From: Diplonema papillatum
Lineage: Eukaryota
NCBI GenBank assembly: GCA_030068145.1
Contig: JAPJBO010000372.1
Span: forward strand, 141,284-205,283
Direction of reading: 5' to 3'
Length of the DNA: 64,000 nucleotides
Shown here in pieces: positions 29,908-60,260 of the stretch (position 1 is the first letter of the stretch; every line of letters starts with the position of its first letter). Under the pieces are notes generated by a model. The model was not told where the DNA came from, did no database searches, and saw only the letters and a list, made by a program, of their open reading frames with translations. A program made the translations under genes and the position numbers.

Positions 29908-32900
29908 GACAACAATGCATCCGCCACCCTTTTGAGAGTCGGGCCGCTCACTTACACGAAGAGCGAACACGAACACGTATGTTTTGAAAGAGATTCTAGT
30001 CATCTTGGTTTAACTCCGTTGTAATTACTGTCCGGGTCTAGTTGGGAGCTGATCATTGGCGGCTTGCGTCGCTCATATAATATATATTATATACGCACCT
30101 TTGACTGACGTCAGACCCACACGCAGAGCACGAAGACGAAGAACAGAACGAGGAAGAATGATCCGGGTCAACCAATTGGCGGCCAAAGAGATACATCTCC
30201 TTCTTCAACTTTTCTGAATAAAAGCAGCAATAGTGTTCCAAACCATTGAACCCTTCACACAGATTCTTTGCGAACCAAAAGCTTTTGTGGTTGTCCCCCC
30301 GAGACACTACTGCATTGTCGAGAATCCTGTGCAGCGAAAAGACGATGGTACTCCGGTTCTCGACAGCGAGGGGTATGCCCAAAATCACCGCTGCATTTCG
30401 CATCTCTCCCCTCGGAAAAATTAAATTCAGGGTAATCGTTATTCAAGCGGAGGTTTCTAGGCTGACACAATTGTCTTTCTCTGGGTCTTTGAAAGGCTAC
30501 CAAAAGCCCATCGCAGATCTCGATTCATTTTGTTGGCCGTCTGCCTCCGGTAACGCAGCTCAGGTACATACCATACACACACTATACACGCATTACCTAA
30601 TGCAGGCAAGCTGTCGTTCAGCTTGGCGACAGCGAGATTCGAATGGATTGCGCACCATTCCCGCTGTACCCTGGCGAACAGCTCAGCAAGGCAGTGCCAC
30701 TTCCACTGCAAGTTTTGCCTCCCAACATGGCCAACCGAGTCAAGGCGACGAGGAACTTTGATGACAAGGTATGCCTGCTGTTTCATGTCAAGCCGAAGTG
30801 CTCCGATTTGTTGCCAGGACTGGCCCCACCGGTTGATATGGTTGCATACAGCGACCCGAACCACACTGCTCCCTCCTGCACCCATCAGTTCCGGGCTTGC
30901 GGGTTTGCGTGGGGGTGCAGTTCCTGCTACCGGTTAGCAGGCTTCTGAACGCGTTCCCGAATTGGTGGTCCCGAGCAGTTGAGGCGAAGTTCAAAGGCTG
31001 GGTTTCGTCCCGACTGACTTCGTACACCCGGGGCTCGCGTATTACTCCGTCTACGCTCTGCAAGCACCTTCCTTTTAAGATGGCTTCGACGCCCGTCTCT
31101 TCGGTTGCAGGAGGTTCTTGGTACACGCCGGCGAGGATGCTTGTTCCGGGCCCTCTTGGCAATGGCCGCGGGTCAAGTCAAAGGATGCAGAAAGTATGCG
31201 GGTCAAAGCGCTTGCACCAAATTTGGGGACGCGAAGAGGCAGTGTCGAAGATACCCAGGGGATGACGGTAGAGCCAGGTACCTGGATACCGTGGAACACG
31301 CAATTAATCTGCCTACGCCTACGCGCAGGCTCGCACAGCTCTCTCCCACAGCCGTCTGACAACGTTGTCGCGCGAAATGGAGCACCTTGCCCCGTCTTCT
31401 CTCTATTTTCCCGCTTTGCGTGTCCCGTATACTCCCGTTTCTCCCCTGTTGGATGGTATTAACAACAGGATTTGTGGTGGAAATCCTCCTTGACCCTCTG
31501 ACAGGGGACGGCTCCAACCCCCCCGACGTTTTTGCATTTCCACACCTCCTGTCGGGGGTTAAATGTACGGCCACTTTTTTGTTGTTGGGTTGGTCAGAAC
31601 ATACGCAAAGCAGGAAGAGTTAACACTCACACCAACAGCTTGCCGACGAGACGGTTGTAAAGAGGATTGCCGGCGATGAGTGGCTGGTTGAGGGCCCGTG
31701 CACGTACTACCCTCACGTGTGCAAGGAAGTCGTGCAGACAGTGAAGGCGAACTTCATCGGGAAGAACGAGGCGTTGAAGCTTCGCGCTGTCAACAAGTTC
31801 GTGGATCGGACGGGGACTGAGCGGAAAGTCGGGAGCGAGTGGCTGTGGGCAGAGTTTGGACCTTACATGCCGTCTGTGGACGAGATGGTGGTCGAGGTTG
31901 TGAAGGCGAACATTCTGTCTGAGATGAAAGCGATCCATGTGCACTGCTTGTACGCGTTCACCGACTGCTTTGGGCAGGAGAGAAGGGCAGGGGACCAGTG
32001 GTTGGTGACAAACAAGGACACCGAGACCTACATTCCGACACCGAACGAGACAGTGTCGAAGGAAGTACCGCTGTGTGTGTTGAACAAGAAGCAGTACTGC
32101 ATTGTGGTTGACCCTTACGACTCCAAGACGAAGATGAACCAGCTGAGCGTGCGGAAGCTTATCAAAGGCCCCAGCCGATTCTTCCTGCACCCTGGAGAGA
32201 AGCTGGAAGGAGGGTGTGCTAAGGACGTGTATGTGATGATGGCCGACGAGGCGCTTCTTCTAGAGGCGAGCGAAACATTCACCGACGAGAACGGTGTTGC
32301 ACGCGAGGCGGGAGACCTGTGGATGATCAACGGGCCGTGCGAGTACATCCCCCCTGTGCAAGTTGTTGTGGTTGAAAAGAGGACAGCCATGGCCATGCAC
32401 GAGTACGAGGGTGTGTACGTGAGAGATCTGAAGACTGGTGTTGTGCGCTCACAGATGGGCCCGTGCAGCTACATGTTGCAGGCTGGGGAGGAGTTGTGGG
32501 AAAAGGAACTGTCGCAGGAGGTGGAAGGCCTGCTGGGCAAGATCACTGAAGGCTCCACCCGAGGCACGTGGAGCACAAAGGCTGGCTCGAGCACGCGAGA
32601 CAGAACGCGAGTCATTGTGTACTCGGTGCCGCACAACTCTGTGTGCCAGATCTTCGACTACAAGACGAAGACATCGCGCTGCATCTGCGGTCCTGACATG
32701 GTCAGTTTGAACCCTGACGAAGAATTCACTGTCATTTCGCTGTCAGGCGGAAAGCCCAAGGTTTGTATTTGTCCACTGTATCATGGGGTCATCAAACGGT
32801 GAAGTGGGTTCTTTCTGTTTGCATGAGGACACGCAGGTGCACATCACAATTGTCGGAATTGCTGAACTCTTGGTCTTCTTGCACTGTGTTGTCAAACATT

Positions 32901-34156
32901 TCGAAGTATGCCAAGTACCATGTATGCACGCAATGCAAATCCCTCAGGTTGCCGGGCGGATCAAGTGTCTTTCGCTGTTCTTGGGACCCGACTTCATGAC
33001 TGACAACATCAAGGTGGAGACAGCGGACCACGCCAGGTTGGAACTGCAGCTATCGTACAGCTGGCGTTTTGCAGTGGACCCGAAAGATAAGACGGCGGTG
33101 CGGAAGGTGTTCAGCGTTCCGGACTTCGTGGGAGACAGCTGCAAGGCGATTGCAAGCAAGATCAGAGGCTGCTGTGCAGGTGTCACATTCGACAACTTCC
33201 ACAAGAACTCATCGTCTATCATTCGATACGCTGTTTTCGGGTCGAAGGATGCGTGGATCTCGGGTGGGCGTCCTCTGTCCGTCGGAGATGTCATCGTGAC
33301 GGCAGACGGGAAGAAGGAGAAGGTGACCAAAATCGACAAGATGGAGGTGACAGCAGATTCTGGACCGGTGGCAGACCCGACGACGCTGGCGACAGCAGAT
33401 GGGAACGAGATCAAGCGGGGCAAGTGGCCGCACGAGGCTTTGCACTTCAACAACGGGTTGGTGATTTCGAACGTCGACATCCAGAGCATGGAACCTGTGG
33501 ACCAGAAGACAAAGGACAGCTTGATCAAGTCGGTGCAGCTTGCCATCCACATCACGACGCAGAGCCAAGAGGCGGCGGCGAAGCACAAGGCTACAGAAGA
33601 GGAGCAAAAGGCACGTGGTGAGCTTGAGTCGCAGCTGATCAAGGACAAGGCAATGTCAGAAAGGGAACGCATGAAGCTTCTTCGACTCAAGGCAGAGTCG
33701 CAGACCATCGAGACGTCGGGGGCCCAACGCGCGGAAGCTCAAGCAGCCGCTGAGGCAGCGCGTGTTGAAGCTAAGTCGCTTGTGGAGCTGGCCAGGATGA
33801 AGGCAGAGGCGCAAAAGATTCAATCCCAGATGGACGTCGATCTCGACAATGCCCGCTGCAGCGAAGAACTGAGACACCAGGAATCGATGAATTCCTTAGA
33901 AGTCGACAAGGCCCAGTTCTTGGCACGTATCGAGGCAGACAAGTTCAAGAAGACGGTCGGATCCATTGGCAAAGACACCATCCAGGCGATCGCTCGTGCA
34001 GGACCCGAGAACCAAGTCAGACTTCTCAAGGCGCTCAACCTGCAAGGCTACATGGTCACAGATGGGTCTTCTCCCATCAACCTGTTCAACGCTGCTCAGG
34101 GCATGACAGGCCAGATGGCAAACCAGGCTAACGCAATCGTTGCTGGCGCTCACTAG
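29908..34156 (+). CDS. MVP: Major vault protein, copy 1; resolved exons 29908-29976, 30263-30372, 30606-30768, 31639-32760, 32948-34156; the 5'-most exon with the ATG is not found
   Basis: Translated exons align along vertebrate MVP: DNNASATLLRVGPLTYTKSEHEH (MVP: VSRVEVGPKTYIRQDNERV), ILCEPKAFVVVPPRHYCIVENPVQRKDDG (MVP: VTVPPRHYCTVANPVSRD), QAVVQLGDSEIRMDCAPFPLYPGEQL (MVP: LEIRLAQDPFPLYPGEVL), then the 374-codon repeat-domain exon (LADETVVKRIAGDEWLVEGPCTY...YSVPHNSV...LSGGKPK) and the shoulder/cap-helix exon (GPDFMTDNIKVETADHARLELQLSY...VQLAIHITTQSQEAAAKHKATEEEQKARGELES...DGSSPINLFNAAQGM, stop tag at 34154-34156). All introns are GT-AG with consistent phases. Confidence 0.9.
30074..30113 (+). 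promoter_or_regulatory. Candidate promoter elements upstream of MVP copy 1: an AT-rich TATA-like block and a perfect CRE-like palindrome TGACGTCA (30106-30113)
   Basis: Direct read: gctcatataatatatattatatacgcacctttgactgacgtcagac, about 150 bp upstream of MVP exon 3 and about 100 bp downstream of exon 2. Position relative to the unidentified first exon is uncertain. Confidence 0.15.
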
Positions 34157-34689
34157 GAATAGAGGCATCTCTGCTGGTCTGAAAGTCTTATCTGACAGAA
34201 CTGATAATGACGAAATGGTACACGCGCGAAGCACTTTCTCTAGCCTCCATTTGTTCCACCCCCTTTTTCTTTTTCTTCCCTATCTTCTAATATTTTTTTC
34301 TCGGCAGGGGAATGCCCTCTGCCAAACTATTTTTACACTCAAAAGCAAAGAAGCCTGCAACACCTGCGTCAAGTCCCCGAGCTTCATCGAATCCTGCACA
34401 ACACCGCCACGGCAACCTCCGGCTTCGCGCTGCTTTTTCTGCTGAAGGTGCAGAGAACATGCCCACACTATGATGATGGGCGTGTGAGAGAACTAGCCAA
34501 GATGTTGCGTTATGTCGATTTTCGGTGTGGCAATTGTAACAACAAACAACGCATTTTTCGAGACTGGAGGTCCTATGAACATGCAATGTGAATAGCCTCT
34601 ATTCGAGCCAACCCGGCTTTTCTTCATGAAAAAAGTGTATTGTTTTTGGAAAGAGCCGGGCAAGCTTTTTTTTTTCCTCGCAGAAGGTA

Positions 34690-34765
34690 TGCGGGTGGCA
34701 GAGTGACCGGGCGCCGGCCTTCAGACCGGTGAGTCCGGGTTCGAACCCCGCCCATGACATTTTTC
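34690..34765 (+). repeat. tRNA-derived SINE-like head (degenerate tRNA with pol III A-box tggcagagtga and B-box gggttcgaacccc, followed by a ttttt run); further copies at 38110-38175 (-) and 41040-41100 (-)
   Basis: gggtggcagagtgaccgggcgccggccttcagaccggtgagtccgggttcgaaccccgcccatgacattttt. I could not fold it into a canonical cloverleaf (acceptor and T stems do not pair), so it is called a tRNA-like repeat rather than a tRNA gene. Confidence 0.5.
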
Positions 34766-34859
34766 CGGTCGAAGATTGTTTTCGAGGTTTGTTGCGTTTC
34801 GGGGTCAAATGTGCCCGAAAATTGCGTTTTTGGCGGAGTTTCTCAGTATCTCGCGGTAT

Positions 34860-35470
34860 TTGGGTCACCCCGGGAAACGGAGTCGGGCGGCCGAGCTTGC
34901 CATCACAGGCCAAACTTGCTACGAGAACCGAACTTTGCTTCACCAGAACTCAGCTTCGTGCGAACTTTGCTTCGTCTGCGCCCGTACCAGAATTTAGCAT
35001 CGCCCGAACTTTGCTTCGCCAGAACTTAACTTCGCCCGAGCGTTGCTTCGCCCGAACTCAGCTGCGCCCGAACTTTGCTTCACCAGAACTTAGCTCCGCC
35101 CGAACTTAGGATCACTCGAACTCATTATCGTCCGAACTGAGCTTCACCAGAACTTAGCTCCGCCCGAACTTTTGCTTCGCCGGGGGGCGGCGGGGGGGGC
35201 GCCCACCCGGGTAGCAGCGCCAAACTTTTCCCGCACTCGGTGGGTCGGGGGGGATCCGGGGGGGGTGTCCCCCCCCGGGTACGAGCACCGACCTTGGCTT
35301 CACCCGGACTTTACACCCTGGCCGAACTTCGCTTCGTGCCCGAACTGTTTTTTAGTACCAGCGCAGCCTGAGGGCTTAGCAACGCCCGAACTAAGCATCA
35401 CTCGAACTTAGCTTCACCAGCATTGCCCGAACTTAGCTTCGCCCGAACTTTACTGTTCCCCGAACTTTAA
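34860..35470. repeat. Minisatellite, unit about 21-22 bp (gcccgaacttagcttcgccagaact and variants), with an embedded G/C-homopolymer block at 35180-35280
   Basis: Tandem units read directly (ccgaactttgcttcaccagaactcagcttcgtgcgaactttgcttcg...). The inverse array is at 37690-37930, with a short piece at 38250-38320. Confidence 0.7.
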
Positions 35471-38400
35471 CTGCTGCCTCCAGTCTCGCCACGCGCCGGC
35501 CTTAGCCGAGCGCACGTACTCAACGTGTTTGTTTTTGTAGTAGCTCACGGCAGCCTTTCCTAGAGTTGAGCACGAGTGGCACGACATGGTTTTGTTCTCT
35601 CGTATCATAGCTAAGAGCAGAAAGAGATCCAGCGGGCATCGCAGTGCTACTGAACAGGAAAATAATCTTTAAGAGCAAGCAATGGAGACAACACGGACAG
35701 ATTGCACCAGAGACAGGAAGTGCAACAAAATCGAAAAGCAACAGACAGTACTGCAATCCCGGTCGTCAGAACACAAAAGAACTCTCGAAGGAAAAATCTC
35801 ATCTTTGCGTACGCAGAGGTGTGAGACCTCCTAAACGTTTTGAATGCTCTCGTGACGCCTACGCCAACGTACCCGAGTCAGTAGAGTGTTGTCCCTGAGG
35901 ATGAGCTGCCGGCCGGGTCAGACGACACCATCTGCCGCAGGTTCAGCAATTGCTGGGCATGCAATGGCGAAAAAATTGAACGGCCCACTCAACGAAGCAA
36001 TGAACGAATCAATAAATAATGGGTCATGATGCAATGTTCTTTCGGAACAGGGGAATGCAGAGGGATGCGCACTCTTCACGAAGAAAGCTGAGCTTTCTCA
36101 CCCAAGCCAACCTCTTTCTCAATACGACGTTTTCCCTCTCACCAATCCTGGGTTCTATTTTTTGCAGACAGCTCTGTGAAGTTGTAGCTTTGCGAGGCCC
36201 CGGCAAGCTTGCAAAGTCAAGCAGGGCTGTACCCCTCTGCCGCATCGTGAACAGTAGGTTTGTTCTGGTTGGTGCCTCTCACCTCTGCCCTTCCCGGATT
36301 TCTCCCTTTATGATGCTTTGTTTTTTTTGTCCCATTCGAGCCAACTCTACCCAGCGGAAGTCGGCAAGGAACTCCATTACATAAGGGCGACCGTAGATTG
36401 CAAAGACGTTGTATAAACTGTGTAAATGATTCCATGATGAGGAGATCAAGTCGTTCTGGCCGAGAAGAAATCTAAGCTGCCGGTCAGAACTAGTGTTGAC
36501 AGTGGTTCAAAAACAGAGAACACATGACGCTTTCATTGCATGTTGTCGCCTCTATTCGCGACAGGTGAAACATCCGCATAGATTCACGGCTTTCAAGATC
36601 TCTGCGCCACCTTGTACTTCAGGTGGAACCGTGCTTTCAAGAGTATGCAAGACCGTGAGAGGAACTGCACACAGCTAAGACCGGGGGGGAAACACGAAAT
36701 GCTGCAGGATCGTGAAAACCCAGGTTTAGTTGTCGTTTCGGAGAACCAGCTGACTCGTTCACTCTGGCCGCTTTGCCAAAACACATCTCATGCAGTGATC
36801 TCTTCTCCCCGCCAACAAGAAAGAGAACAATCAAAACGAAAAATGGCGAATCTGACTGTCATCCACTTGAAGACGAACCAGTACACTCACATACTTGTAT
36901 GTCTCCTCAGTTGAATCGAGCGTGGTAGTCTTTCGATGGACTAGAGACACAGCATCAATACGAGATGCCAACCCGAGGCTGGTTATTATTGAAGGATGTC
37001 ACTTAGCCCGGAGGCCTCCAGGGCTTGGCGCCTCTCGAGGCTGGGGCACTAGGCGAAGCTTTGAGGGCTGAGGGCTAAGGTTGTGCCTGGGCCGAGGCAG
37101 CACAGATCGCCCGGACAAGGCTCGAACATGAAACCAACCGGTCGTTAGGCCATGTTTTCGCATCGAAGACCCCTGTGAGAGCGTGTATCGTGCACGAGGT
37201 TTTTGTTCCGACTGAGCATGCCACCCGCATTATTGTCAGACAGGCCGCCCCAGCCAAACTCCACCTAGTGCATCTCGAATCGGGCGGTGCGATATCACAA
37301 GCATCACCCTACCATAAAAAACCTTGAGTACAGTCATCCGGGCTCCACAACTCCAGCTCTCAGCCCAGGCTGGTCACCTTTAGTTGTCTAGCAGGGTGAA
37401 GTCTTCTGCCGACTCTACCAGTCCCAAAACGATTGGTCTGCAAACCCGCCAGCGCCTGCCACATCCGGAGTGAATCCGTGTTCTCTTACTTTGTTTTGGA
37501 GGGGTTAGTTTAGAAGCGTGATGAGTAGAGCTCTCCCGCATTAGTGCGAAAGGGGAGACTCTTAAGGGGGGGTGCGAAACGGGAGGTCCTTCCATGTGGC
37601 AGATGTCAACTTGCTACCAGCAGAAATTCAACAAAGTACGTGCGCTCGGCTAAAGACCGGCGCGGGGCGAGACTGGAAGCAGCAGTTAAAGTTCGGGAAA
37701 CAGTAAAGTTCGGGCGAAGCTAAGTTCGGGCGATGCTAAGTTCTGGTGAAGCTCAGTTCGCTAAGTTCAGCGATGCTAAGTTCGGGCGAAGCAAAGGTCG
37801 GGCGATTCTGGTGAAGCTCAGTTCGACAATGCTAAGTTCGAGTGATGCTAAGTTCGGGCGAAGCAAAGTTCGGGCGAAGGGGAAGTTCGGGCGAAGCAAA
37901 GTTTGGGCTCTGAGATGCTGAGTTCGGCGTGTGGTAGCGCAAGTTTGGCCTGTGATGGCAAGTTCGGCCCCAGTACCCGGGGGGGGTGACCCCCCCGGAC
38001 CCCCCCCGACTCCGTTTCCCGGGGTGACCCAAGTACCGCGAGATACTGAGAAACTCCGCAAAAAACGCTAATATCGGGCCCCTGGAACGCAACTAACCTC
38101 GAAAACAATCTTCGACCGGAAAAGTGTGATGGGTGGGGTGCGAACCCGGGCCTACCAGCCTAAAGGCCGACGCCCGCTCACTCTGCCACCCCCCCCCCCC
38201 CCCCCCCTTCAAACCCAAGAAACATTTTCCCCCCCGGGTACTGGCGCTAAACTTGCTACCACACGCCGAACTCAGCGTCACCAGAACCCGAACACAACTT
38301 GCTTCGCCCCAACTTTGCTGTGTTTTTCTTGTCGTATAGGATCGAAGATCTTAGAAGATTTATACCTATTCCGACGAGAACTAACACTTGTTCAAAGGTT

Positions 38401-38640
38401 ATTACCCCGTCGCTCCCGAGAAAAACACCGTAATTTTACCCCTCGCTTGAAGAAGAAGTTCGTGGCATACACAAGAGAATCTTTGCATGACCTTTCTACG
38501 TTTGTTACGCACCATCAATCTGGCATCACACACCAGCAAGGACGAGAGCAGCGTATGGAGCAGCGAGACGGGCGAGGAGGAGAGTATCACCAGACAATGC
38601 CTGCATTGGGGCTCGACAAAGAAAGAAAGGGGAAAGACAC

Positions 38641-40760
38641 CATAGATGGCCGTTATATAACGTTATATAACGTTATATAACGTTATTCCCGGAGTTATTT
38701 GTTACCCCCCCCCTAAATCCAGAAAAACCGTTATTGACCGTTATAAAACCGTTATTTGCCATTTTTGGTAAAAATAACGTTATTTGACCGTTATAACGTT
38801 ATATAACGTTATATAACGTTATAATAACGGTATAATAACGTTATATAACGTTATAATAACGTTATATAACGTTATAATAACGTTATATAACGTTATATAA
38901 CGTTATATAACGGTTTTTTACCAATCCATGGGAGGTCACACTGTCCTCCAGATTTTGGTCATTTTTGGCCATTTTTGCCACATTTTCCAGATTTTGGCCA
39001 ATTTTGGTTATTTTTGCCAATTTTTCCAGATTTTGGTCAATGTTGACCAGTTTTGCCGTGTTTTCCAGATTTTGGCCCATTTTGGCCGTTTTTACCGATT
39101 TGGCCAGGATTGGCCATTTTTGCCATGTTTTTCAAAAATTTGGCTATTTTTGCCGATTTTTCCAGGTTTTGGTCATTTTTGGCCAGTTTTGCCATGTTTT
39201 CCAGACTTTGCCCATTTTGGCCGTTTTTGCCGATTTTTCCAGGGTTTTGGTCATTTATGCCCTGCCCCTCACCAGAGCTATTCTTGTCTGAGTTTCTTAA
39301 ACCCGCACAAGCTCGAACAGGCAGTCCGTGCGCGGAAAAAAAAAAAGGTCGAAAGACACCAATCTGTACACCCATTCGGGATCGTCGGAAACACAAAAAC
39401 ACGTGTACCGCCCCACCCGCTTCGATTTCAGCCACACTAGTCTTTCCAAAGGGAATATCGACTATGCCTGCGAAAAGCTCCCCGAAGGTCCAGCCGAAGC
39501 CGAAGGTTCAACCTAAAGCTCAGCCGAAAGCTCAGCCGAAGACCCCAGGTACACAGCGCAAACGGCCTCGCGCCGAAAGTACGGATAGCAACAGCAGCAG
39601 CAGCAGCGCCTCGGTTGCAAAGGCGCGACGCGGAAGGAAGAAGGTGGCGGAAACGCTGCGCGTCGAGGCCTTGTCCCGCGACCTGGCATTGACTGGCCCC
39701 AGCGTTCTCCCTGTCACGAAACCACCAAGTAAGAGCCCGGAACAACGATTCATCGACCGGATCAAGAAAACCGACCCCGGGCTGGCTGGGTTCTACGGGA
39801 AGCGCCAGCTGTGACTGCTCGACTTTGCATGTCTCGTGCTCATCATGCACCCATATTTGGTACTGGGACCTTGTCTGACTGGCATAGTACGCAACGGTCT
39901 GCCGAGTGGACAAGCTTGGACAAGTTGGACTCCAGTGGCCGGATCATGCTGGTGACATCTGCTGCCTCACGAAGGACACTGCAAACGACCGTTACGGGCC
40001 ACCGACTGAGGGACACGCGCCGGAAACCCAAAACTGCAGACATCCACATCCCAAGAACAACATCGCACAGTGAAAGAGTCATGTGAATCCGGAAGGATCG
40101 CGTTTGTCGCGCTTGGGTGGAAGTCCGCAAGAAAATAAGTAAAAGAGAAAAAGCTCTGGGGAGGGGCTATACGGACCCCTGAGGACCGGTTACTACGAAT
40201 TCTTTTCGGACCAGGGTTTGTTTCCGAACAGTTTTTGTGACCGGGATCCAAAAATCGGCAAAAGTCTGGAAAAATTGGCAAAAATGGCCGAAATTGACCA
40301 AAATCTGGAAAATCGGGAAATCTGGAAAAATCGGAAAAAATGGCCGAAATTGACTGATCTGGATAAATCGGCCAGAGTGGCCAAAATCTCAAAATTGTCC
40401 AAAATCTTGAAAAATCGGCAAAAATGGCCGAAATCTGGAAAAATCGGCAAAGATTGCCGAAATCTGGAAAAAATCGGCAAAATGGCCAAAACCTGAAAAA
40501 ATCGGCAAAAGTCTGGAAAAATTGGCTAAGATTGACCAAAATCTGGCAAAAATGGCCAAAATCGGAAAAAATGGCCGAAATGGACCAAAATGAGGAAAAA
40601 ATGACAAAAATCTGGAAACATGGCCAAAATCGGAAAAATTCTAAAAACCGTTATTTGCGTTATTTTTTCCGTTATTTTGCGTTTTCGACCGTTATTTAAC
40701 GTTATATAACGTTATATAACGTTATCACCGTTATAACGTTATATAACGTTATATAACGTT
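38641..40760. repeat. Palindromic satellite domain: outer arrays of the self-complementary 10-mer ACGTTATATA (38641-38920; 40690-40760) and inner arrays of phased T-tract repeats about 10.5 bp apart (T-rich strand 38960-39290; A-rich strand 40230-40650)
   Basis: Left arm: cgttatataacgttatataacg... then ttttggccatttttgccacattttccagattttggccaattttgg.... Right arm is its reverse complement (aaaatcggcaaaaatggccgaaatctggaaaaa... then ...aacgttatataacgttatataacg). The unique centre at 39300-40190 holds the basic ORF below. The track ORFs 38928-39440, 38965-39291, 39967-40539, 40193-40489 and similar are satellite translations. Confidence 0.75.
39464..39814 (+). CDS. Small basic K/P-rich protein (116 aa) with PKxQ repeats, KRPR and RRGRKK AT-hook/NLS-like motifs; a hypothetical linker-histone/HMG-like nuclear protein
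   Basis: ATG at 39464 (ctATGcctgcgaaaagc), stop tga at 39812-39814. Sequence: MPAKSSPKVQPKPKVQPKAQPKAQPKTPGTQRKRPRAESTDSNSSSSSASVAKARRGRKKVAETLRVEALSRDLALTGPSVLPVTKPPSKSPEQRFIDRIKKTDPGLAGFYGKRQL. It sits exactly at the centre of the palindromic satellite. Composition is non-repetitive apart from the (A/V)QPK repeats. Confidence 0.35.
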   Translation: MPAKSSPKVQPKPKVQPKAQPKAQPKTPGTQRKRPRAESTDSNSSSSSASVAKARRGRKKVAETLRVEALSRDLALTGPSVLPVTKPPSKSPEQRFIDRIKKTDPGLAGFYGKRQL

Positions 40761-40779
40761 ATCAACCGGCCATCTATGA

Positions 40780-41235
40780 GACACACTATTCAAACATCAC
40801 CCATGCATTCAAGTCAAGAATTTCAACACCAGGCCCACCCGGGCTCCCCCGACAAACCCGCATGTCAAGTTCGGTATGTGGTGGCAAGGTCGACACCAGT
40901 ACCCAGGGGGGGACCCCCATCCCCGGGAAGTTTGGCACTCGTACCCTCCGGGGGCCGGCGGGGCGACCCAAATACCACGAGATTATGAGAAACTCCGCAA
41001 AGAAACGCAAATTTCGGGCACATTAGACCCCCGAAACGCAACAAACCTCGAAAACAATTTTCGACCGGAAAAGTGTGATGGGCGGGCCGAAGCCAGCTCA
41101 CGTATACTTTTGGGCAGGGGGGAAAAAAGCTAGCTCCGCGCTCGTATCCAGTCCAAAAGCTCGCAACACTAAAAGCCGGGTTGACTCGAATAGAGGCTAT
41201 TCACATTGCATGTTCATAGGACCTCCAGTCTCGAA
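40780..41235 (-). repeat. Third, inverted copy of the SINE-head/minisatellite/X-box module, abutting MVP copy 2
   Basis: 40990-41100 is the reverse complement of 34695-34990 (ctcgaaaacaattttcgaccggaaaagtgtgatgggcggg...). 41165-41232 (aaaagccgggttgactcgaatagaggctattcacattgcatgttcataggacctccagtctcgaaaa) is the reverse complement of 34553-34620, which lies immediately 3' of MVP copy 1. Confidence 0.55.
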
Positions 41236-41255
41236 AAATATTTGGAACAACACAG

Positions 41256-44200
41256 GACAACAATGCATCCGCCACCATTTTGAGAGTCGGGCCTCTCACT
41301 TACACGAAGAGCGAACACGAACACGTATGTTTAGGCTCGTTCGTCTTTCACTGTTGCCCACACGCACCATCGGCAAAACCCCTGCAAGAACGAAATCAAC
41401 GGGGCATCTTCAAGTGTTGTGACTGACTGCCCCACAGTTGGAAAACAAGATCTTGGTTGTTGTCAGACTCCCCCCCTAGGCATACATTCTGGAGGGAGTC
41501 TGACAGCAAGGCAAGACCTTTCTTGCTGTCGTTGGGAAATTTGAAACCTGGGTTTAGCTGACCTCATTATCCTAAAAAAGTGCGCCGTCACTCTTCTTGC
41601 AAACCAACCTCTCCTCACAGATCCTCTGCGAACCGAAAGCTTTTGTGGTTGTCCCTCCGAGACACTATTGCACGGTTGAGAATCCTGTTCAGCGGAAGGA
41701 CGATGGAACTCCGGTTCTCGACAGCGAGGGGTATGCCAAAAGTTACCTGTTGCATCACAGGCCTGCACTTCACAGATTTCCTCATCAGGAAATAACATTC
41801 ATCGATAATTTTAGGTTTCCAGGTTGACCCTCAACGGGTTTCCAACCATTCTTTGCCTGCAGAAAGCTGCGACGGAAGACCAGTTTCTAACATAATGCAG
41901 ATCATCATCAAAAAGTCTCCAAACGGCGAAACGCCTTCCGACGAATCATGCCTGCGGTCTCACTAGGTTGTCCTGTTGCGCAGCGTTCTCTTTTGCTCAG
42001 TTACATACCATACCCAAACCATTTACACACCACCAATGCAGGCAAGCTGTCGTTCAGCTTGGCGACAGCGAGATTCGAATGGATTGTGCACCATTCCCGC
42101 TGTACCCTGGCGAACAGCTCAGCAAGGCAGTGCCACTTCCACTGCAGGTTTTGCCTCCGAACATGGCCAACCGAGTCAGGGCAACGAGGAACTTTGACGA
42201 CAAGGTATGCCTGCTGTTTCACAGCCCGAGACCCGACCCAATAGCTGCGGCCAGCGCTTCGCGGAAGAAATAGGCGTTTTCAGACGTCTACGCTGAAGCT
42301 TTCCGCTCAGTCGTACATGACATCGCTGCACCCTATTTCGTGGTGTTCCGGCGGGGAAAAGAACGTTGGGCCAAGAACCGAAAAGTCGGCTTCCACTACG
42401 ACCTTGAGCTTTCGGTGGGTAGAGGTTCCACGGGGGCCACCGTGGACCCTAAGAACGTGAAACGTATCCCGTATAATGATCCCAAGCGCCGCGTATCAAC
42501 TAGGATACGCGACGGTGGAGAACCTGACGCGACTCCTGTCCAACAAGCGCAACGCTTCAGCGGCGTTGCTGCTCGTCACTGCTGCTTGGGGCGGGGTACT
42601 GCCGAGACACCAGGCCTGCATCACCCGTTGTTGGTTGAAAAGATCCCTCCGTTCTTCCCTCTTTCCTATGTGCTTCCGAACCTTTACGTGTCATACCCTC
42701 ACCAACAGCTTGCCGACGAGACGGTTGTAAAGAGGATTGCCGGCGATGAGTGGCTGGTTGAGGGCCCGTGCACGTACTACCCTCACGTGTGCAAGGAAGT
42801 CGTGCAGACAGTGAAGGCGAACTTCATCGGGAAGAACGAGGCGTTGAAGCTTCGCGCTGTCAACAAGTTCGTGGATCGGACGGGGACTGAGCGGAAAGTC
42901 GGGAGCGAGTGGCTGTGGGCAGAGTTTGGACCTTACATGCCGTCTGTGGACGAGATGGTGGTCGAGGTTGTGAAGGCGAACATTCTGTCTGAGATGAAAG
43001 CGATCCATGTGCACTGCTTGTACGCGTTCACCGACTGCTTTGGGCAGGAGAGAAGGGCAGGGGACCAGTGGTTGGTGACAAACAAGGACACCGAGACCTA
43101 CATTCCGACACCGAACGAGACAGTGTCGAAGGAAGTACCGCTGTGTGTGTTGAACAAGAAGCAGTACTGCATTGTGGTTGACCCTTACGACTCCAAGACG
43201 AAGATGAACCAGCTGAGCGTGCGGAAGCTTATCAAAGGCCCCAGCCGATTCTTCCTGCACCCTGGAGAGAAGCTGGAAGGAGGGTGTGCTAAGGACGTGT
43301 ATGTGATGATGGCCGACGAGGCGCTTCTTCTAGAGGCGAGCGAAACATTCACCGACGAGAACGGTGTTGCACGCGAGGCGGGAGACCTGTGGATGATCAA
43401 CGGGCCGTGCGAGTACATCCCCCCTGTGCAAGTTGTTGTGGTTGAAAAGAGGACAGCCATGGCCATGCACGAGTACGAGGGTGTGTACGTGAGAGATCTG
43501 AAGACTGGTGTTGTGCGCTCACAGATGGGCCCGTGCAGCTACATGTTGCAGGCTGGGGAGGAGTTGTGGGAAAAGGAACTGTCGCAGGAGGTGGAAGGCC
43601 TGCTGGGCAAGATCACTGAAGGCTCCACCCGAGGCACGTGGAGCACAAAGGCTGGCTCGAGCACGCGAGACAGAACGCGAGTCATTGTGTACTCGGTGCC
43701 GCACAACTCTGTGTGCCAGATCTTCGACTACAAGACGAAGACATCGCGCTGCATCTGCGGTCCTGACATGGTCAGTTTGAACCCTGACGAAGAATTCACT
43801 GTCATTTCGCTGTCAGGCGGAAAGCCCAAGGTTTGTATTTGTCCACTGTATCATGGGGTCATCAAACGGTGAAGTGGGTTCTTTCTGTTTGCATGAGGAC
43901 ACGCAGGTGCACATCACAATTGTCGGAATTGCTGAACTCTTGGTCTTCTTGCACTGTGTTGTCAAACATTTCGAAGTATGCCAAGTACCATGTATGCACG
44001 CAATGCAAATCCCTCAGGTTGCCGGGCGGATCAAGTGTCTTTCGCTGTTCTTGGGACCCGACTTCATGACTGACAACATCAAGGTGGAGACAGCGGACCA
44101 CGCCAGGTTGGAACTGCAGCTATCGTACAGCTGGCGTTTTGCAGTGGACCCGAAAGATAAGACGGCGGTGCGGAAGGTGTTCAGCGTTCCGGACTTCGTG

Positions 44201-45226
44201 GGAGACAGCTGCAAGGCGATTGCAAGCAAGATCAGAGGCTGCTGTGCAGGTGTCACATTCGACAACTTCCACAAGAACTCATCGTCTATCATTCGATACG
44301 CTGTTTTCGGGTCGAAGGATGCGTGGATCTCGGGTGGGCGTCCTCTGTCCGTCGGAGATGTCATCGTGACGGCAGACGGGAAGAAGGAGAAGGTGACCAA
44401 AATCGACAAGATGGAGGTGACAGCAGATTCTGGACCGGTGGCAGACCCGACGACGCTGGCGACAGCAGATGGGAACGAGATCAAGCGGGGCAAGTGGCCG
44501 CACGAGGCTTTGCACTTCAACAACGGGTTGGTGATTTCGAACGTCGACATCCAGAGCATGGAACCTGTGGACCAGAAGACAAAGGACAGCTTGATCAAGT
44601 CGGTGCAGCTTGCCATCCACATCACGACGCAGAGCCAAGAGGCGGCGGCGAAGCACAAGGCTACAGAAGAGGAGCAAAAGGCACGTGGTGAGCTTGAGTC
44701 GCAGCTGATCAAGGACAAGGCAATGTCAGAAAGGGAACGCATGAAGCTTCTTCGACTCAAGGCAGAGTCGCAGACCATCGAGACGTCGGGGGCCCAACGC
44801 GCGGAAGCTCAAGCAGCCGCTGAGGCAGCGCGTGTTGAAGCTAAGTCGCTTGTGGAGCTGGCCAGGATGAAGGCAGAGGCGCAAAAGATTCAATCCCAGA
44901 TGGACGTCGATCTCGACAATGCCCGCTGCAGCGAAGAACTGAGACACCAGGAATCGATGAATTCCTTAGAAGTCGACAAGGCCCAGTTCTTGGCACGTAT
45001 CGAGGCAGACAAGTTCAAGAAGACGGTCGGATCCATTGGCAAAGACACCATCCAGGCGATCGCTCGTGCAGGACCCGAGAACCAAGTCAGACTTCTCAAG
45101 GCGCTCAACCTGCAAGGCTACATGGTCACAGATGGGTCTTCTCCCATCAACCTGTTCAACGCTGCTCAGGGCATGACAGGCCAGATGGCAAACCAGGCTA
45201 ACGCAATCGTTGCTGGCGCTCAGTAA
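41256..45226 (+). CDS. MVP: Major vault protein, copy 2 (tandem paralog); exons 41256-41324, 41621-41730, 42042-42204, 42709-43830, 44018-45226
   Basis: Exon structure is identical to copy 1. Exons 2-4 are about 90-97% identical to copy 1 with diverged introns. From 15 bp upstream of the exon-5 acceptor to the stop codon (42694-45221 versus 31624-34151, offset exactly 11070 bp) the two copies are identical at every position I compared, including intron 5. The final codon differs (cag taa versus cac tag; Q versus H) and downstream sequence is unrelated. Track ORF 42340-43872 reads through intron 4 and is not the true CDS. Confidence 0.85.
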
Positions 45227-51648: not shown

Positions 51649-52980
51649 ATGATCCTGCGATGCCTTCGACAGACACGGAAAGCGACTTTGCAACAGAAGA
51701 AAACGACGAATGACGATGACATTGCTGTGCAGCTCCTGCACGAGAAGTACTGTTCTGTCATTTCCATTCCGAACAAGAAGTATGGCCGTCGACATGTGCT
51801 GCCAGCTTCACAGTTAATACGAACTGCTGACGAAATGGCACGAATGGTTCGAGAGTGGAAGCAAGGAGAAGGTTGGATCATTGGTTTCCAAACTTGCGAA
51901 GCGGTGCTGCGGTTCATGGCAAACCACGGCCTTGGAGGTCAAGCATGGACTTTCCGTTGTTGGATGGCAATCGAAGAGATTGCTATTATGAGAACCTCTG
52001 ACCGATTCAAGCTCGATTTACTGTGTCTCAGAGCGGCTGCGAAAGAAAGAAGTCTTGCTGATGCAACACGAACGAAGTGTGAACACAAAAGCCTCCCACA
52101 GAAGATATGGAGCAGCATGCACTGGACATACAATTTGTCTGATTTGCCAGCATTCCTTCTATCACAGTTGGCCGTTGCGCTTCTTTCTATTGGAGAGACC
52201 GGTGAGGCGCATCGTGCTATCAAGGTGATTCACACGACACAACCACACTTTCGACTTCATACCCCTGTGTGGTCAGCGCTTGTTGTAAATGCTGAAAACC
52301 TGGAAGCTGCAGTTCGGCAGTTTGAGACTGCACGAAAAGAGGTACCACCCGACGCTGTTCTGTACCACAATCTCTTCCAAAAATGCCGAAGCTCCCTAGA
52401 GGGAGCACTTCGCAAAAGTGGAAAAACCCATCGCCTGTCTCTGATTGAGTCGACACTTGCAACTGAAAGCACACAAAGTAGCAGCAGTGGAAAAGCCATT
52501 CCAACAGAGAACCGTGTACCACCTAACTTTCGTACTCTAGCCCAAGGCACAACAGCACATTTCAGCAAGAATTTGATTTCCAACTCGCTGACACTTGCGG
52601 CTGATGACTTGGAAATGCTTGCCTCACGAACAGAAGCTGATGAAGTCATCATTGCAATGCGGTATTTTCATCAAGCTCTGGGAGACACGTGCATCGGTAT
52701 CCCTGTCTGGACAGGCTTATCAGATCTTTTTCTGACAGCAGAAGATCTGTTTGAACAATTGAGCATCGTGTCACGCGGGCCTGCTGTATCAGGTACATAT
52801 GCCAATTTGATACAGCAAGTTTCATACATTGCTAATTCAGCTTCCAGTGATGCAGAGATGTTTGGAACATTCTTCACACTCTTGTATGAGGACACAACAT
52901 CACTTGGATTTTCATCTAGTTACATTCGAAGATTGTTCTCAGCTCATGCACCTTCGTTTCACAGGGCTGTTGGTGTGTAG
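51649..52980 (+). CDS. Hypothetical protein, 443 aa, single exon, no recognisable family (ORFan)
   Basis: Long uninterrupted ORF with ordinary amino-acid composition, in a locally AT-richer segment (about 45-48% GC versus about 55-58% in the MVP/CHO2 regions). Confidence 0.35.
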   Translation: MILRCLRQTRKATLQQKKTTNDDDIAVQLLHEKYCSVISIPNKKYGRRHVLPASQLIRTADEMARMVREWKQGEGWIIGFQTCEAVLRFMANHGLGGQAWTFRCWMAIEEIAIMRTSDRFKLDLLCLRAAAKERSLADATRTKCEHKSLPQKIWSSMHWTYNLSDLPAFLLSQLAVALLSIGETGEAHRAIKVIHTTQPHFRLHTPVWSALVVNAENLEAAVRQFETARKEVPPDAVLYHNLFQKCRSSLEGALRKSGKTHRLSLIESTLATESTQSSSSGKAIPTENRVPPNFRTLAQGTTAHFSKNLISNSLTLAADDLEMLASRTEADEVIIAMRYFHQALGDTCIGIPVWTGLSDLFLTAEDLFEQLSIVSRGPAVSGTYANLIQQVSYIANSASSDAEMFGTFFTLLYEDTTSLGFSSSYIRRLFSAHAPSFHRAVGV

Positions 52981-55560: not shown

Positions 55561-55580
55561 GGGGGACAAGACCCGGAAAC

Positions 55581-56072
55581 CCCGCAAACCCGCAAACCCG
55601 CAAACCCGCAAACCCGCAAACCCGCAAACCCGCAAACCCGCAAACCCGCAAACCCGCAAACCCGCAACCCGCAAACCCGCAAACCCGCAAACCCGCAAAC
55701 CCGCAAACCCGCAAACCCGCAAACCCGCAAACCCGCAAACCCGCAAACCCGCAAACCCGCAAACCCGCAAACCCGCAAACCCGCAAACCCGCAAACCCGC
55801 AAACCCGCAAACCCGCAAACCCGCAAACCCGCAAACCCGCAAACCCGCAAACCCGCAAACCCGCAAACCCGCAAACCCGCAAACCCGCAAACCCGCAAAC
55901 CCGCAAACCCGCAAACCCGCAAACCCGCAAACCCGCAAACCCGCAAACCCGCAAACCCGCAAACCCGCAAACCCGCAAACCCGCAAACCCGCAAACCCGC
56001 AAACCCGCAAACCCGCAAACCCGCAAACCCGCAAACCCGCAAACCCGCAAACCCGCAAACCCGCAAACCCGC
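55581..56072 (+). repeat. (CCCGCAAA)n 8-mer satellite array 1, about 61 units (complement TTTGCGGG)
   Basis: Near-perfect units with one 7-mer variant at about 55667. The array ends at cccgcactagaaatgagcacatggtctaagcacgttaggagagttggttttggtgtgctttccgccaa. Confidence 0.9.
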
Positions 56073-56643
56073 ACTAGAAATGAGCACATGGTCTAAGCAC
56101 GTTAGGAGAGTTGGTTTTGGTGTGCTTTCCGCCAAAGAAGGCCAAGTCAAGGCTTCGTGGCCAGATTTGGTCGCAAAATCTTCATCCTTCTCCTTCCCCT
56201 TTTCCTTCCAGGGTCTGTTTTCCTGTGGCGCTGGCACTGCCCGACCGCCCCTGTTTCTTTTCCTTAAAATTTTGGACAACCAACGATTTAAAAGCTACAG
56301 TTTCTGTACTTTATTGGTACTTTAACACACCTTGACAGCCTAAGGGCTGCTATTTTGGCTTGGCCAGGTCCCTCTTGAAGGGGCCTGGCCTTTCTTTTAT
56401 CAAACATTGCCTTGGAGAGCATAGCCCTTTCATGGGGGACAAGAACCTGACCTGCACCTCCTCGTGGTGTCCCTCGGAAACGTGCCAAAACAAGGCACGG
56501 CTGACGCAGGCAGTATTTGTTGATGCATTTCCCCTTTTTCTTCAGGTGGTGGGATCCAAAAAATCACCGGATGCCCAAAAAACGCATTTCAAGGTCAATC
56601 CCTTGAAACCTGTGCAAGATGTGTTTTTACTTTTCCTTCAATT

Positions 56644-56760: not shown

Positions 56761-57483
56761 TTTTCCCTTCTCCTTCTCCTTCTCCCTTCTCCTTCTCCTT
56801 CTCCTTCTCCTTCTCCTTCTCCTTCTCCTTCTCCTCCTTCTCCCTTCTCCTTTTCCTTCCAGGGTCTGTTTTCCTGTGGCGCTGGCACTGCCCGACCGCC
56901 CCTGTTTCTTCTCCTTAAAATTTTGGATAACCAACGATTTAAAAGCTACAGTTTCTGTACTTTATTGGTACTTTAACACACCTTGACAGCCTAAGGGCTG
57001 CTATTTTGGCTTGGCCAGGTCCCTCTTGAAGGGGCCTGGCCTTTCTTTTATCAAACATTGCCTTGGAGAGCATAGCCCTTACGTACTCCTCCTTCTCCTT
57101 CTCCTCCTTCTCTTTCTCCTCCTTCTCCTTCTCCTCCTTCTCCTTCTCCTCCTTCTCCTTCTCCTCCTTCTCCTTCTTCTTTGCGCCCCTCTCGCAGCAG
57201 GCCGAACATGGAAAGGTACCTTCTTCCAGGTGGCTCTCAAGCAAAGCGGGTTGCAGTGGATTTTGTTCAGCCCCAAGCAGAAGTAAGCACATTTGGTTCT
57301 TTATGACCCCTTGTTTCTGACAGCTCCCAAGAAGAAGGCTGTAAAGTGGGTAAGGTGGATATTGTGCGGCCTATTCTGGTCTGGGCTATTTCTGACAGCC
57401 CCAAGACAAAAGGGAAGCAAGTTGCATTTCAAGGTCAATCCCTTGAAACCTGTGCAAGATGTGTTTTTACTTTTCCTTCAATT

Positions 57484-58200: not shown

Positions 58201-58259
58201 AATTTTAAGGAAAAGAAGCAGAGGGGGTCGGGCAGTGCTGGCGGCCTTGGACTCAGCCG

Positions 58260-60260
58260 TCCCTAAGGCCTCACCTGGCCAGGGCTTCCCACTTGCTGCC
58301 TTCTCTCATGCAGAAGAGGGGAAAAGTGGATTCCAGATTTTGGTACCGGATTTCAGGTGGCCTCACTTGGCCAGGGCTTCCCACTTGCTGCCATCTCTCA
58401 TGCAGAAGAGGGGAAAAGTGGATTCCAGATTTTGGTACCGGATTTCAGGTGGCCTCACTTGGCCAGGGTTTGGGTTCAGGTCTTCAGCCTTTCTCTTTCC
58501 CTTCAGACTTTCCTTCCAAAGAATCAAAAGAAGGCCAAAGCTCCCACAAAGGAAGCCAAGGCTCACTGTAAGCATAGGCAAACTGCCATTCAGGGTGTTT
58601 AAGTACCAATAAAGTACAGAAACTGTAGCTTTTAAATCGTTGGTTGACCAAAATCTGAAGCAAAGGAAACACTGCATTTGAAAGATCCTTGTGCAACTGG
58701 GTCCCCAGTCCCTGGTCCCCAAAAAACCCAACTTCGGGGAATTGACCAAAAATCGATTTCTCCTTCTCCTTCTCCTTCTCCTTCTCCTTCTCCTTCTCCT
58801 TCTCCTTCTCCTTCTCCTTCTCCTTCTCCTTCTCCAAATTTTAAGGAAAAGAAGCAGAGGGGGTTGGGCAGTGCTGGCGGCCTTGGACTCAGCCGTCCCT
58901 AAGGCCTCACCTGGCCAGGGCTTCCCACTTGCTGCCTTCTCTCATGCAGAAGGGGGGAAAAGTGGATTCCAGATTTTGGTACCGGATTTCAGGTGGCCTC
59001 ACTTGGCCAGGGCTTCCCACTTGCTGCCTTCTCTCATGCAGAAGGGGGGAAAAGTGGATTCCAGATTTTGGTACCGGATTTCAGGTGGCCTCACTTGGCC
59101 AGGGCTTCCCACTTGCTGCCTTCTCTCATTCCAGATTTTGGTACCGGATTTCAGGTGGCCTCACTTGGCCAGGGCTTCCCACTTGCTGCCATCTCTCATG
59201 CAGAAGAGGGGAAAAGTGGATTCCAGATTTTGGTACCGGATTTCAGGTGGCCTCACTTGGCCAGGGTTTGGGTTCAGGTCCCTAGCCTTTCTCTTTCCCT
59301 TCAGACTTTCCTTCCAAAGAATCAAAAGAAGGCCAAAGCTCCCACAAAGGAAGCCAAGGCTCACTGTAAGCATAGGCAAACTGCCATTCAGGGTGTTTAA
59401 GTACCAATAAAGTACAGAAACTGTAGCTTTTAAATCGTTGGTTGACCAAAATCTGAAGCAAAGGAAACACTGCATTTGAAAGATCCTTGTGCAACTGGGT
59501 CCCCAGTCCCTGGTCCCCAAAAAACCCAACTTCGGGGAATTGACCAAAAATCGGATTTTCTCCTTCTCCTTCTCCTTCTCCTTCTCCTTCTCCTTCTCCT
59601 TCTCCTTCTCCTTCTCCTTCTCCTTCTCCTTCTTTTCCTTCTCCAAATTTTAAGGGTCGGGCAGTGCTGGCGGCCTTGGACTCAGCCGTCCCTAAGGCCT
59701 CACCTGGCCAGGGCTTCCCACTTGCTGCCTTCTCTCATCAGAAGGGGGGAAAAGTGGATTCCAGATTTTGGTACCGGATTTCAGGTGGCCTCACCTGGCC
59801 AGGGATTCCCACTTGCTGCCTTCTCTCATGCAGAAGGGGGGAAAAGTGGATTCCAGATTTTGGTACCGGATTTCAGGTGGCCTCACTTGGCCAGGGCTTC
59901 CCACTTGCTGCCTTCTCTCATTCCAGATTTTGGTACCGGATTTCAGGTGGCCTCACTTGGCCAGGGCTTCCCACTTGCTGCCTTCTCTCATGCAGAAGGG
60001 GGGAAAAGTGGATTCCAGATTTTGGTACCGGATTTCAGGTGGCCTCACCTGGCCAGGGATTCCCACTTGCTGCCTTCTCTCATTCCAGATTTTGGTACCG
60101 GATTTCAGGTGGCCTCACTTGGCCAGGGCTTCCCACTTGCTGCCTTCTCTCACGCAGAAGGGGGGAAAAGTGGATTTCAGATTTCAGTGGTGGATTTCAG
60201 GCGGCCTCACCTGGCCAGGGCTTCCCACTTGCTGCCATCTCTCAGGCAGAAGAGGGGTAA
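58260..60260. repeat. Tandem repeat family with a 91-bp unit (cctcac(c/t)tggccagggcttcccacttgctgcc(a/t)tctctcatgcagaag(a/g)ggg(g)aaaagtggattccagattttggtaccggatttcaggtgg) plus shorter deletion-variant units of about 64 bp; three blocks (58260-58480, 58890-59280, 59690-60250), each followed by the same roughly 300-bp tail
   Basis: Unit starts are at 58269, 58360 and 58451 (period 91). Variant units lack atgcagaag..gtggatt (for example 59100-59165). Each block is followed by the same tail (58480-58760, 59280-59560, 60380-60660: ...ccaaagaatcaaaagaaggccaaagctcccacaaaggaagccaaggctcactgtaagcataggcaaactgccattcagggtgtttaagtaccaataaagtacagaaactgtagcttttaaatcg...). Part of that tail is the reverse complement of the 5S spacer segment 56262-56330. 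Confidence 0.8.

Follow-up and report, generated by a model that had tools for sequence, protein, structure and literature searches.

Foldback transposons are defined by composite inverted arms of tandem repeats that enclose a middle domain (PMC4079207, PMC3169594), and most of them have been assigned to Mutator, with target-site duplications (TSDs) of 8–10 bp (PMC4079207, PMC3169594). In Tetris of Drosophila virilis, whose copies are non-autonomous and have TSDs, tandem repeats occur inside long terminal inverted repeats (TIRs) and a middle domain is present (PMC4079207), and Tm1 of Meloidogyne has composite TIRs of 13–15-bp tandem motifs, the number of which differs between the element ends (PMC3169594). 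The tandem repeats in the TIRs of Galileo carry secondary transposase-binding sites (PMC4079207, citing Marzo et al. 2013). Here we analysed a 64,000-nucleotide stretch of the genome of Diplonema (Paradiplonema) papillatum (assembly GCA_030068145.1, contig JAPJBO010000372.1, positions 141,284–205,283; hereafter the window, to which all coordinates refer), in which the segment 38641–40778 is probably a full copy of a foldback-like class II (cut-and-paste) transposon that is non-autonomous and mobilised in trans. This reading draws on a TIR/TSD pair, composite and unequal arms, a centre with no recognisable transposase and near-identical copies of a central open reading frame reported on 14 contigs.

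The Diplonema element shares with foldback elements in the broad sense (Drosophila FB, Tetris, Tm1 and Arabidopsis FARE) unequal arms of tandem repeats, short conserved termini, TSDs and a transposase-less middle domain, the copies of these elements being mostly non-autonomous. Its sub-repeat also changes from the terminus inward, as in Drosophila FB, where the sub-repeats reportedly measure 10, then 20, then 31 bp going inward. It differs from them in the 6-bp length of its TSD, the self-complementary outer sub-repeat, the phased T-tract inner sub-repeats and its diplonemid host. Galileo, Kepler and Newton, Drosophila elements of the P superfamily, have a similar foldback-like architecture with internally repetitive TIRs, and the additional binding sites of Galileo find a parallel in the recurrence of the heptamer ATGGCCG in the inner arrays of the Diplonema element. 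Unlike the latter, with its 6-bp TSD and no transposase, Galileo generates TSDs of 7 bp and, in its full copies, codes for a P-like THAP transposase. The first-pass annotation of this DNA had stated that no element with such a layout was described, a view overturned by the published foldback definition given above, which the composite inverted arms and middle domain match. Its suggestion of a foldback transposon was supported, but the interval that it took for the internal region of such an element covers nearly the whole of it. The foldback type is thus known, and the Diplonema element is an addition to this type in an under-explored lineage rather than a new kind.

Termini and composite arms

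Sequence reading of 38000–41500 delimited a sharply bounded element of 2,138 bp (Table 1). The terminal 12 bp were inverted repeats of each other at 12 of 12 positions, and the hexamers directly outside them, AGACAC, were identical at 6 of 6 positions, as in the short termini and TSDs of the foldback class (one copy examined). By our own arithmetic, a 6/6 match at this fixed adjacency is expected by chance in about 1/4096 of cases. The interval proposed earlier, 38641–40760, began at the left TIR and stopped 18 bp before the right terminus, the TIRs and AGACAC having been overlooked.

The length of the putative TSD bears on the superfamily. Assignment to Mutator/Foldback (MULE) would be atypical, because 6 bp lies outside the 8–10 bp (usually 9 bp) of that group, and it would still fall within the 4–10 bp quoted for IS256/MuDR (PMC10045372, Kojima). 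IS3EU/GingerRoot elements have 6-bp TSDs and TA..TA, occasionally TG..CA, termini (PMC10045372). The TSD of the Diplonema element fits the latter group, but its CA..TG termini do not. hAT elements are characterised by 8-bp TSDs and a YARNG terminus, neither of which was found here, as the TSD has 6 bp and the terminus CATAG carries T at the R position. TSDs of 7–8 bp are the rule in P/Galileo (7 bp in Galileo itself), which 6 bp does not match, and 6-bp TSDs occur in Dada and in some hAT subgroups; Dada targets small-RNA genes, and the site of the Diplonema element is not of this kind. The D. papillatum genome has been reported to contain 46 MULE-domain, 12 "TATE" and 1 Tc5-like open reading frames (ORFs).

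The arms were unequal, 622 bp on the left (38641–39262) and 534 bp on the right (40245–40778), and they enclosed an unrelated unique centre of 983 bp. Each arm consisted, from the outside inward, of (ACGTTATATA)n/CGTTAT arrays followed by T-tract arrays (A-tract on the right arm), with Tandem Repeats Finder (TRF) periods of 10, 21, 39, 29 and 58 bp, which is the long inverted arm of short tandem sub-repeats typical of foldback elements. Global alignment of the arms gave 400 matches in 701 columns, including 246 gap columns, corresponding to 88% identity over the ungapped columns and to a score of 416 compared to 84 ± 16 for shuffled arms; the inverted pairs indicated 70–88% complementarity. 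About 100 bp of the left arm (38687–38790) had no aligned partner in the right arm, and the CCGTTAT stretches of the two arms were in direct orientation. The domain called "perfectly palindromic" in the first-pass annotation is therefore an imperfect palindrome.

In the outer arrays, TRF placed the 10-mer ACGTTATATA at 38651–38686, 38774–38912 and 40690–40762, and a listing of the units revealed variants of 8–11 bp, a 21-bp higher-order unit, degenerate units of CCGTTAT followed by a T-run, and CCATTTTGG-like units. The segment confined to the left arm held one TTTGCCATTTTTGG unit embedded among degenerate CCGTTAT(T/A)n units. These motifs were far more frequent in the element than chance predicts: a 17-mer of the arrays had 28 matches in the window compared to 0 expected, every one of them within the element; CGTTAT/ATAACG occurred there 51 times compared to the 0.24 that its frequency in the remainder of the window predicts; and the terminal heptamer ATGGCCG occurred 6 times compared to 0.35 expected, with 4 extra copies in the right inner array. 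A scan of metagenomes for (CGTTATATAA)n returned 4 matches, all of them three-copy sites on unrelated bacterial-looking contigs, a scan of prokaryote genomes returned zero, and a T-tract 17-mer sought in viral sequences matched once in each of 24 contigs, without any indication of an array. The self-complementarity of the 10-mer, already recognised in the first pass, was borne out by folding of the outer arrays as single strands, in which extended hairpins arose whose z-scores lay between −6 and −10 relative to shuffled sequences. For outer array 2, the hairpin had an energy of −51.5 kcal/mol and a z of −10.4.

The inner arrays were built of units in which a T4–5 tract is followed by a five-base GC-rich block (TTTTGGCCA, TTTTTGCCGA, TTTTTCCAGA and TTTTGGTCA), with 30 tracts of 3–6 bases in the left inner array (at 38947–39256) and 38 in the right. 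They were T-rich on one arm and A-rich on the other on the plus strand, as had been noted before. The AA/TT periodicity of the left arm peaked at 9.75 bp, with a power of 17.4 compared to 9.5 for the 99th percentile of the background, and the right arm showed a weaker peak at 9.25–10 bp. The power at 10.5 bp was near zero. This periodicity, shorter than the helical repeat, is a result independent of any curvature model.

A dinucleotide wedge model predicted a curvature of 21.4 degrees per turn for the left inner array and 18.1 degrees per turn for the right one, compared to a window median of 6.3, these values depending on the Bolshoy–Trifonov parameters used. When the 64-kb window was ranked by modelled curvature in 300-bp blocks, the top eight all fell in the inner arrays, and the middle domain was at background level. 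The ratio of end-to-end distance to contour length along the modelled path was 0.6–0.7 compared to 0.34 in an ideally phased control, and because the period of the inner arrays is below the helical repeat, the predicted path is a superhelix and not a planar arc. The intrinsic curvature anticipated by the first-pass annotation is therefore predicted to be the highest in the window, but in a superhelical form and not as a planar bend. In the spacing of A/T runs of 4–6 bases about once per helical turn and in the strength of the predicted curvature, the arrays resemble the curved A-tract DNA of the kinetoplast minicircle bend and of curved satellites. They differ from it by the 9.75-bp instead of ~10.5-bp period, by the superhelical predicted path and by the place of the tracts as sub-repeats of transposon arms.

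The middle domain and its open reading frame

The middle domain encoded no recognisable transposase. The 116-aa ORF reported for it in the first pass exists, and in its product an SPK/PKxQ repeat at the N-terminus is accompanied by RKRPR, a run of serines, the motif RRGRKK and predicted helices in the C-terminal part. It matched zero Pfam families, even at E ≤ 10. An AT-hook, which had been proposed, was absent from the Pfam matches at this threshold, and the RRGRKK motif reads RGRK without the proline of the R-G-R-P core. A single-sequence AF2 model (pLDDT 68, pTM 0.22) showed disorder in the N-terminal half and placed helices with low confidence in the C-terminal part. The frame had the best codon score of the six, with a GC3 of 0.70, and ranked only among the top 16% of the ORFs in the window.

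The translated ORF matched a "hypothetical protein DIPPA_..." of D. papillatum at 100% identity. A search for homologues, one of the checks suggested in the first pass, returned only hypothetical proteins of this species, reported on 14 contigs, and no relative outside D. papillatum was found among 5.8 billion clustered proteins or by exhaustive HMMER search of 1.84 billion representatives. The one protein cluster matched comprised three D. papillatum proteins: one of 112 aa, present on 8 contigs, and two partial ones of 85 and 87 aa, present on 5 contigs and 1 contig, respectively; among the annotated relatives, DIPPA_34896 was reported on 1 contig, DIPPA_23784/16970 on 8 and DIPPA_10786 on 5. 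Relative to the copy in the window, the sole differences were an indel of one 4-aa tandem-repeat unit and the position at which each model starts. The near-identity of the copies indicates recent amplification and is uninformative about selection on the protein. Two partial models started at the first codon after an AG (39547–48 and 39555–56), with no in-frame Met downstream. The two AGs may represent splice-acceptor or spliced-leader (SL) addition sites within the ORF, in which case at least some transcripts could not encode the protein.

We considered whether the product might be an architectural protein encoded by the element, which would bind its own phased A/T-tracts at their narrow minor groove and fold the arms together for transposition. 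The basic N-terminus with its SPK/PKxQ repeat, RKRPR, RRGRKK and the C-terminal helices were the features named for this function, which we rate as unlikely. On this view, the element would carry its own DNA-bending or bridging cofactor to act with curved arms, and its foldback lineage, with a 6-bp TSD, could belong to an undescribed group of transposases in Euglenozoa; we give this extension similarly little weight.

Mobility and competing explanations

The case for mobility joins the TIR/TSD pair of one DNA copy to a copy number at the protein level, and the element is best read as recently amplified. A transposase supplied in trans would recognise the 12-bp ends together with the ~50 sub-terminal CGTTAT/ATAACG motifs; the CGTTAT motifs, like the ATGGCCG copies further in, may be read as transposase-binding sites, for which the TIR repeats of Galileo provide a precedent. 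The enzyme would synapse both ends, excise the element and reinsert it with 6-bp staggered cuts, and would most plausibly come from one of the MULE-domain genes reported in the D. papillatum genome. Slippage and unequal exchange would lengthen, shorten and diversify the arrays and so account for the asymmetry of the arms. The predicted curvature and the hairpin or cruciform potential may aid pairing of the ends, or may be mere by-products of array evolution. The 116-aa ORF would be a passenger or an accessory component. Polycistronic read-through transcription is expected in D. papillatum (Valach et al. 2023), and with the ORF in the same orientation as its polycistronic neighbours, read-through alone could explain its annotation.

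Several observations weigh against a foldback-like transposon. The TSD is a single instance, from the one copy examined as DNA, and sequence complexity is slightly reduced in the right flank, AGACACAC. The window contained no empty site: the flanks joined by one AGACAC matched no paralogue across the junction, and the paralogous spacer of the vault protein genes between which the element lies shared only short anchors with it, being too different for a clean empty site. A 6-bp TSD is unlike that of classical Foldback/MULE elements (8–10 bp) or of Galileo (7 bp). The putative dispersed family is represented by the centre ORF, reported on 14 D. papillatum contigs, and by the arms of the window copy, the one examined as DNA. 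A query spanning the left array and the neighbouring part of the centre, translated as an ORF, matched no annotated protein. The copy number is derived from annotated proteins only, and some of the 14 contigs could be artificial assembly duplicates, a risk raised by the genome paper itself (Valach et al. 2023).

The multiplicity of the ORF could also be accounted for by a host gene for the 116-aa basic protein that lies between inverted satellite arrays and has spread by segmental duplication, with the arrays acting as structural or regulatory bent DNA that positions nucleosomes. Annotation of the ORF as a gene with models reported on 14 contigs, its host-like GC3 and best codon score of the six frames, the strong predicted curvature of the arrays, and the gene-adjacent tandem repeats for which this genome is known (Valach et al. 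2023) all agree with such a gene. A segmental duplicate, however, is not expected to end in a perfect 12-bp TIR adjoined by an identical 6-bp repeat, and the element is flanked by unrelated repeats and has no counterpart in the paralogous spacer. Neither the lack of a homologue outside the species nor the several 5′-partial models, which start just past an AG without an in-frame Met downstream, favours a conserved gene, and we consider this explanation very unlikely. Phased A/T-tracts and short self-complementary repeats are common in satellites and in some replication origins, and together with a predicted curvature that is the highest in the window they could suggest a chromosome-structural satellite at a centromere, subtelomere or origin, the first and last of which were put forward as roles in the first pass. 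Satellites form homogeneous arrays of kilobases to megabases at chromosomal landmarks. The arrays described here total ~1.1 kb, measure 36–390 bp individually and are sharply bounded by the TIRs and TSDs, their 10-mer was found nowhere else in the 64 kb, and the locus is an intergenic spacer between vault protein genes in a same-strand cluster. The recurrence of the centre on many contigs points to dispersal and not to a single chromosomal landmark. These roles are accordingly unsupported here, and a satellite of this kind appears highly improbable.

An assembly artefact, either a long-read hairpin chimera or a collapsed repeat, has the lowest standing of all and is barely credible. The assembly is based on PacBio long reads, and its authors warn of duplicated and collapsed repeats (Valach et al. 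2023); a nearby C19 homopolymer (38189–38207, TRF) suggests a local risk of error. Artefactual palindromes duplicate neighbouring sequence near-perfectly, in contrast to the unequal arms with 88% identity and many indels and to the unique centre of the Diplonema element. In addition, annotations of this centre ORF exist for many independent contigs, and the termini carry both a TIR and a TSD.

Class II transposons are barely characterised in Euglenozoa beyond trypanosomatids. From the trypanosomatids themselves they are reported to be absent, and otherwise only Merlin, in Bodo and Perkinsela, is known (trypanosomatid mobilome paper); for Diplonema only counts of transposase-like ORFs have been reported. 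About half of the 280-Mb D. papillatum genome consists of unclassified dispersed repeats with no curated library of transposable elements (TEs), the characterisation of which was explicitly deferred by the genome paper (Valach et al. 2023). Our literature search found no paper linking foldback elements with Euglenozoa and none on TIR elements of (Para)diplonema, and the supplements of the genome paper contained neither the element sequence nor the DIPPA gene identifiers. If confirmed, an intact foldback-type family with TIRs, TSDs and near-identical copies would be a concrete seed for a TE library and would suggest recent cut-and-paste activity in a model diplonemid. The termini could serve as bait for the autonomous partner, and DIPPA_34896, 23784, 16970, 10786 and other gene models would be marked as transposon-borne. 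Foldback elements elsewhere seed satellites and drive inversions, which bears on the expansion of the D. papillatum genome.

Neighbouring genes and repeats

Table 1 Features of the Diplonema element and its surroundings (window coordinates).
Feature	Position	Strand	Description and basis
Putative TSD, left copy	38635–38640		AGACAC, 6 bp; directly outside the TIR, identical to 40779–40784
Left TIR	38641–38652	+	CATAGATGGCCG, 12 bp, perfect; inverted-pair search, pattern search, arm alignment
Outer array 1	38651–38686		(CGTTATATAA) ×3.6, self-complementary unit; TRF, 100% matches; single-stranded DNA (ssDNA) hairpin z −6.1
Left-arm-only segment	38687–38790		Spacer of unique sequence including a C9 run, followed by degenerate CCGTTAT(T/A)n units; unit listing; unaligned to right arm
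Outer array 2	38791–38912		10/11-bp units ACGTTATATA / ACGTTATAATA, 21-bp higher-order unit ×5.8, locally palindromic; TRF, inverted pair
Left inner T-tract array	38947–39262	+	~30 units (TTTTGGCCA / TTTTTGCCGA / TTTTTCCAGA / TTTTGGTCA), 39-bp higher-order repeat; TRF
Unique middle domain	39263–40245		983 bp, no internal or window-wide repeats
116-aa ORF	39464–39814	+	K/P/S/R-rich orphan; ORF list; same strand as flanking vault protein genes
Right inner array	40249–40639	−	Inverted counterpart, A-rich on plus strand, 29/49/58-bp higher-order repeats; TRF; inverted pairs 70–88%
Right outer region	40640–40762		Degenerate (C)CGTTAT-T-run units, then (ACGTTATATA)n; TRF, unit listing; ssDNA hairpin z −8.8
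Right TIR	40767–40778	−	CGGCCATCTATG, exact reverse complement of CATAGATGGCCG; inverted-pair search, pattern search, arm alignment
Putative TSD, right copy	40779–40784		AGACAC, 6 bp; direct sequence reading
Major vault protein gene copies	31717–34156, 42340–45226	+	Flank the spacer that holds the element
SL exon copies	56278–56316, 56929–56967	+	In SL-5S-U2 type units
SL exon copies	58607–58645, 59405–59443, 60496–60534	−	In a different, ~798-bp repeat

The element is single-copy in the window and lies in the intergenic spacer between two tandem major vault protein genes on the plus strand, its flanks belonging to other, SINE-like dispersed repeats. The paralogous spacer upstream of the first vault gene copy lacks the element, and the anchors common to the two spacers are 425 bp apart there compared to 4,351 bp here. 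The vault gene duplicates are ~11.07 kb apart and up to 99% identical, and each consists of two ORFs that overlap in different frames, which suggests an intron, a frameshift or a sequencing error in a homopolymer. A dispersed repeat occurs on both sides of the element (37713–38191 and 40866–41239) and in reverse complement at 34553–35181, with 16-bp sub-repeats CCAGAACTTAGCTTCG / CCCGAACTTTGCTTCG. On the minus strand at ~38120–38185 it contains a stretch that appears tRNA-like by eye, GGCCCGGGTTCGCACCCC, followed by the C19 run, and the repeat looks like a tRNA-derived SINE; ARAGORN called no tRNA in this stretch.

The window also contains two 5S rRNA genes, a full-length U2 gene and five exact copies of the 39-nt D. 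papillatum SL exon, AACCAACGATTTAAAAGCTACAGTTTCTGTACTTTATTG, which is listed as a unique euglenozoan SL (PMC3795323). The SL-5S-U2 repeat unit is exceptional to Diplonema papillatum, and the genome paper places all SL genes in SL-5S-U2 clusters (Valach et al. 2023). The exon is followed by GGTACTTAAACACCCTGAATGG... in the minus-strand copies and by the intron GGTACTTTAACACACCTTGACAG... in the plus-strand copies, and the three minus-strand copies may represent a second variant of the SL-RNA gene or an SL-derived repeat. A dinoflagellate origin of the DNA, prompted by the 5S/U2 clustering and by the CCATTTTGG-like units, was rejected, as the window contains no DinoSL and carries the exact Diplonema SL exon. 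The SL/5S/U2 cluster and the 100% protein matches identify the source as D. papillatum.

Within the SL region, 58238–60245 carries 92-bp and 162-bp tandem repeats with CCAGATTTTGGTACCGGATTTCAGG, which has an 11-mer in common with the T-tract units of the element. The sharing of the motif CCAGATTTTGG between the element and these 92-bp repeats was judged a coincidence of a single independent 11-mer, and units resembling "ATTTTGG" may be widespread components of repeats in the D. papillatum genome. Two long plus-strand ORFs, 18016–19893 (625 aa) and 51649–52980 (443 aa), had no Pfam family; the latter has a GC3 of 0.43, atypically low for the window, and could be TE-derived or foreign. Two arrays of the 8-bp satellite (ACCCGCAA)n, at 55571–56073 and 61151–61812 (63 and 83 copies, 98–99% identity), bracket the SL/5S/U2 region, the first of them lying in a GC-rich (68%), strongly strand-skewed block at 54–56 kb.

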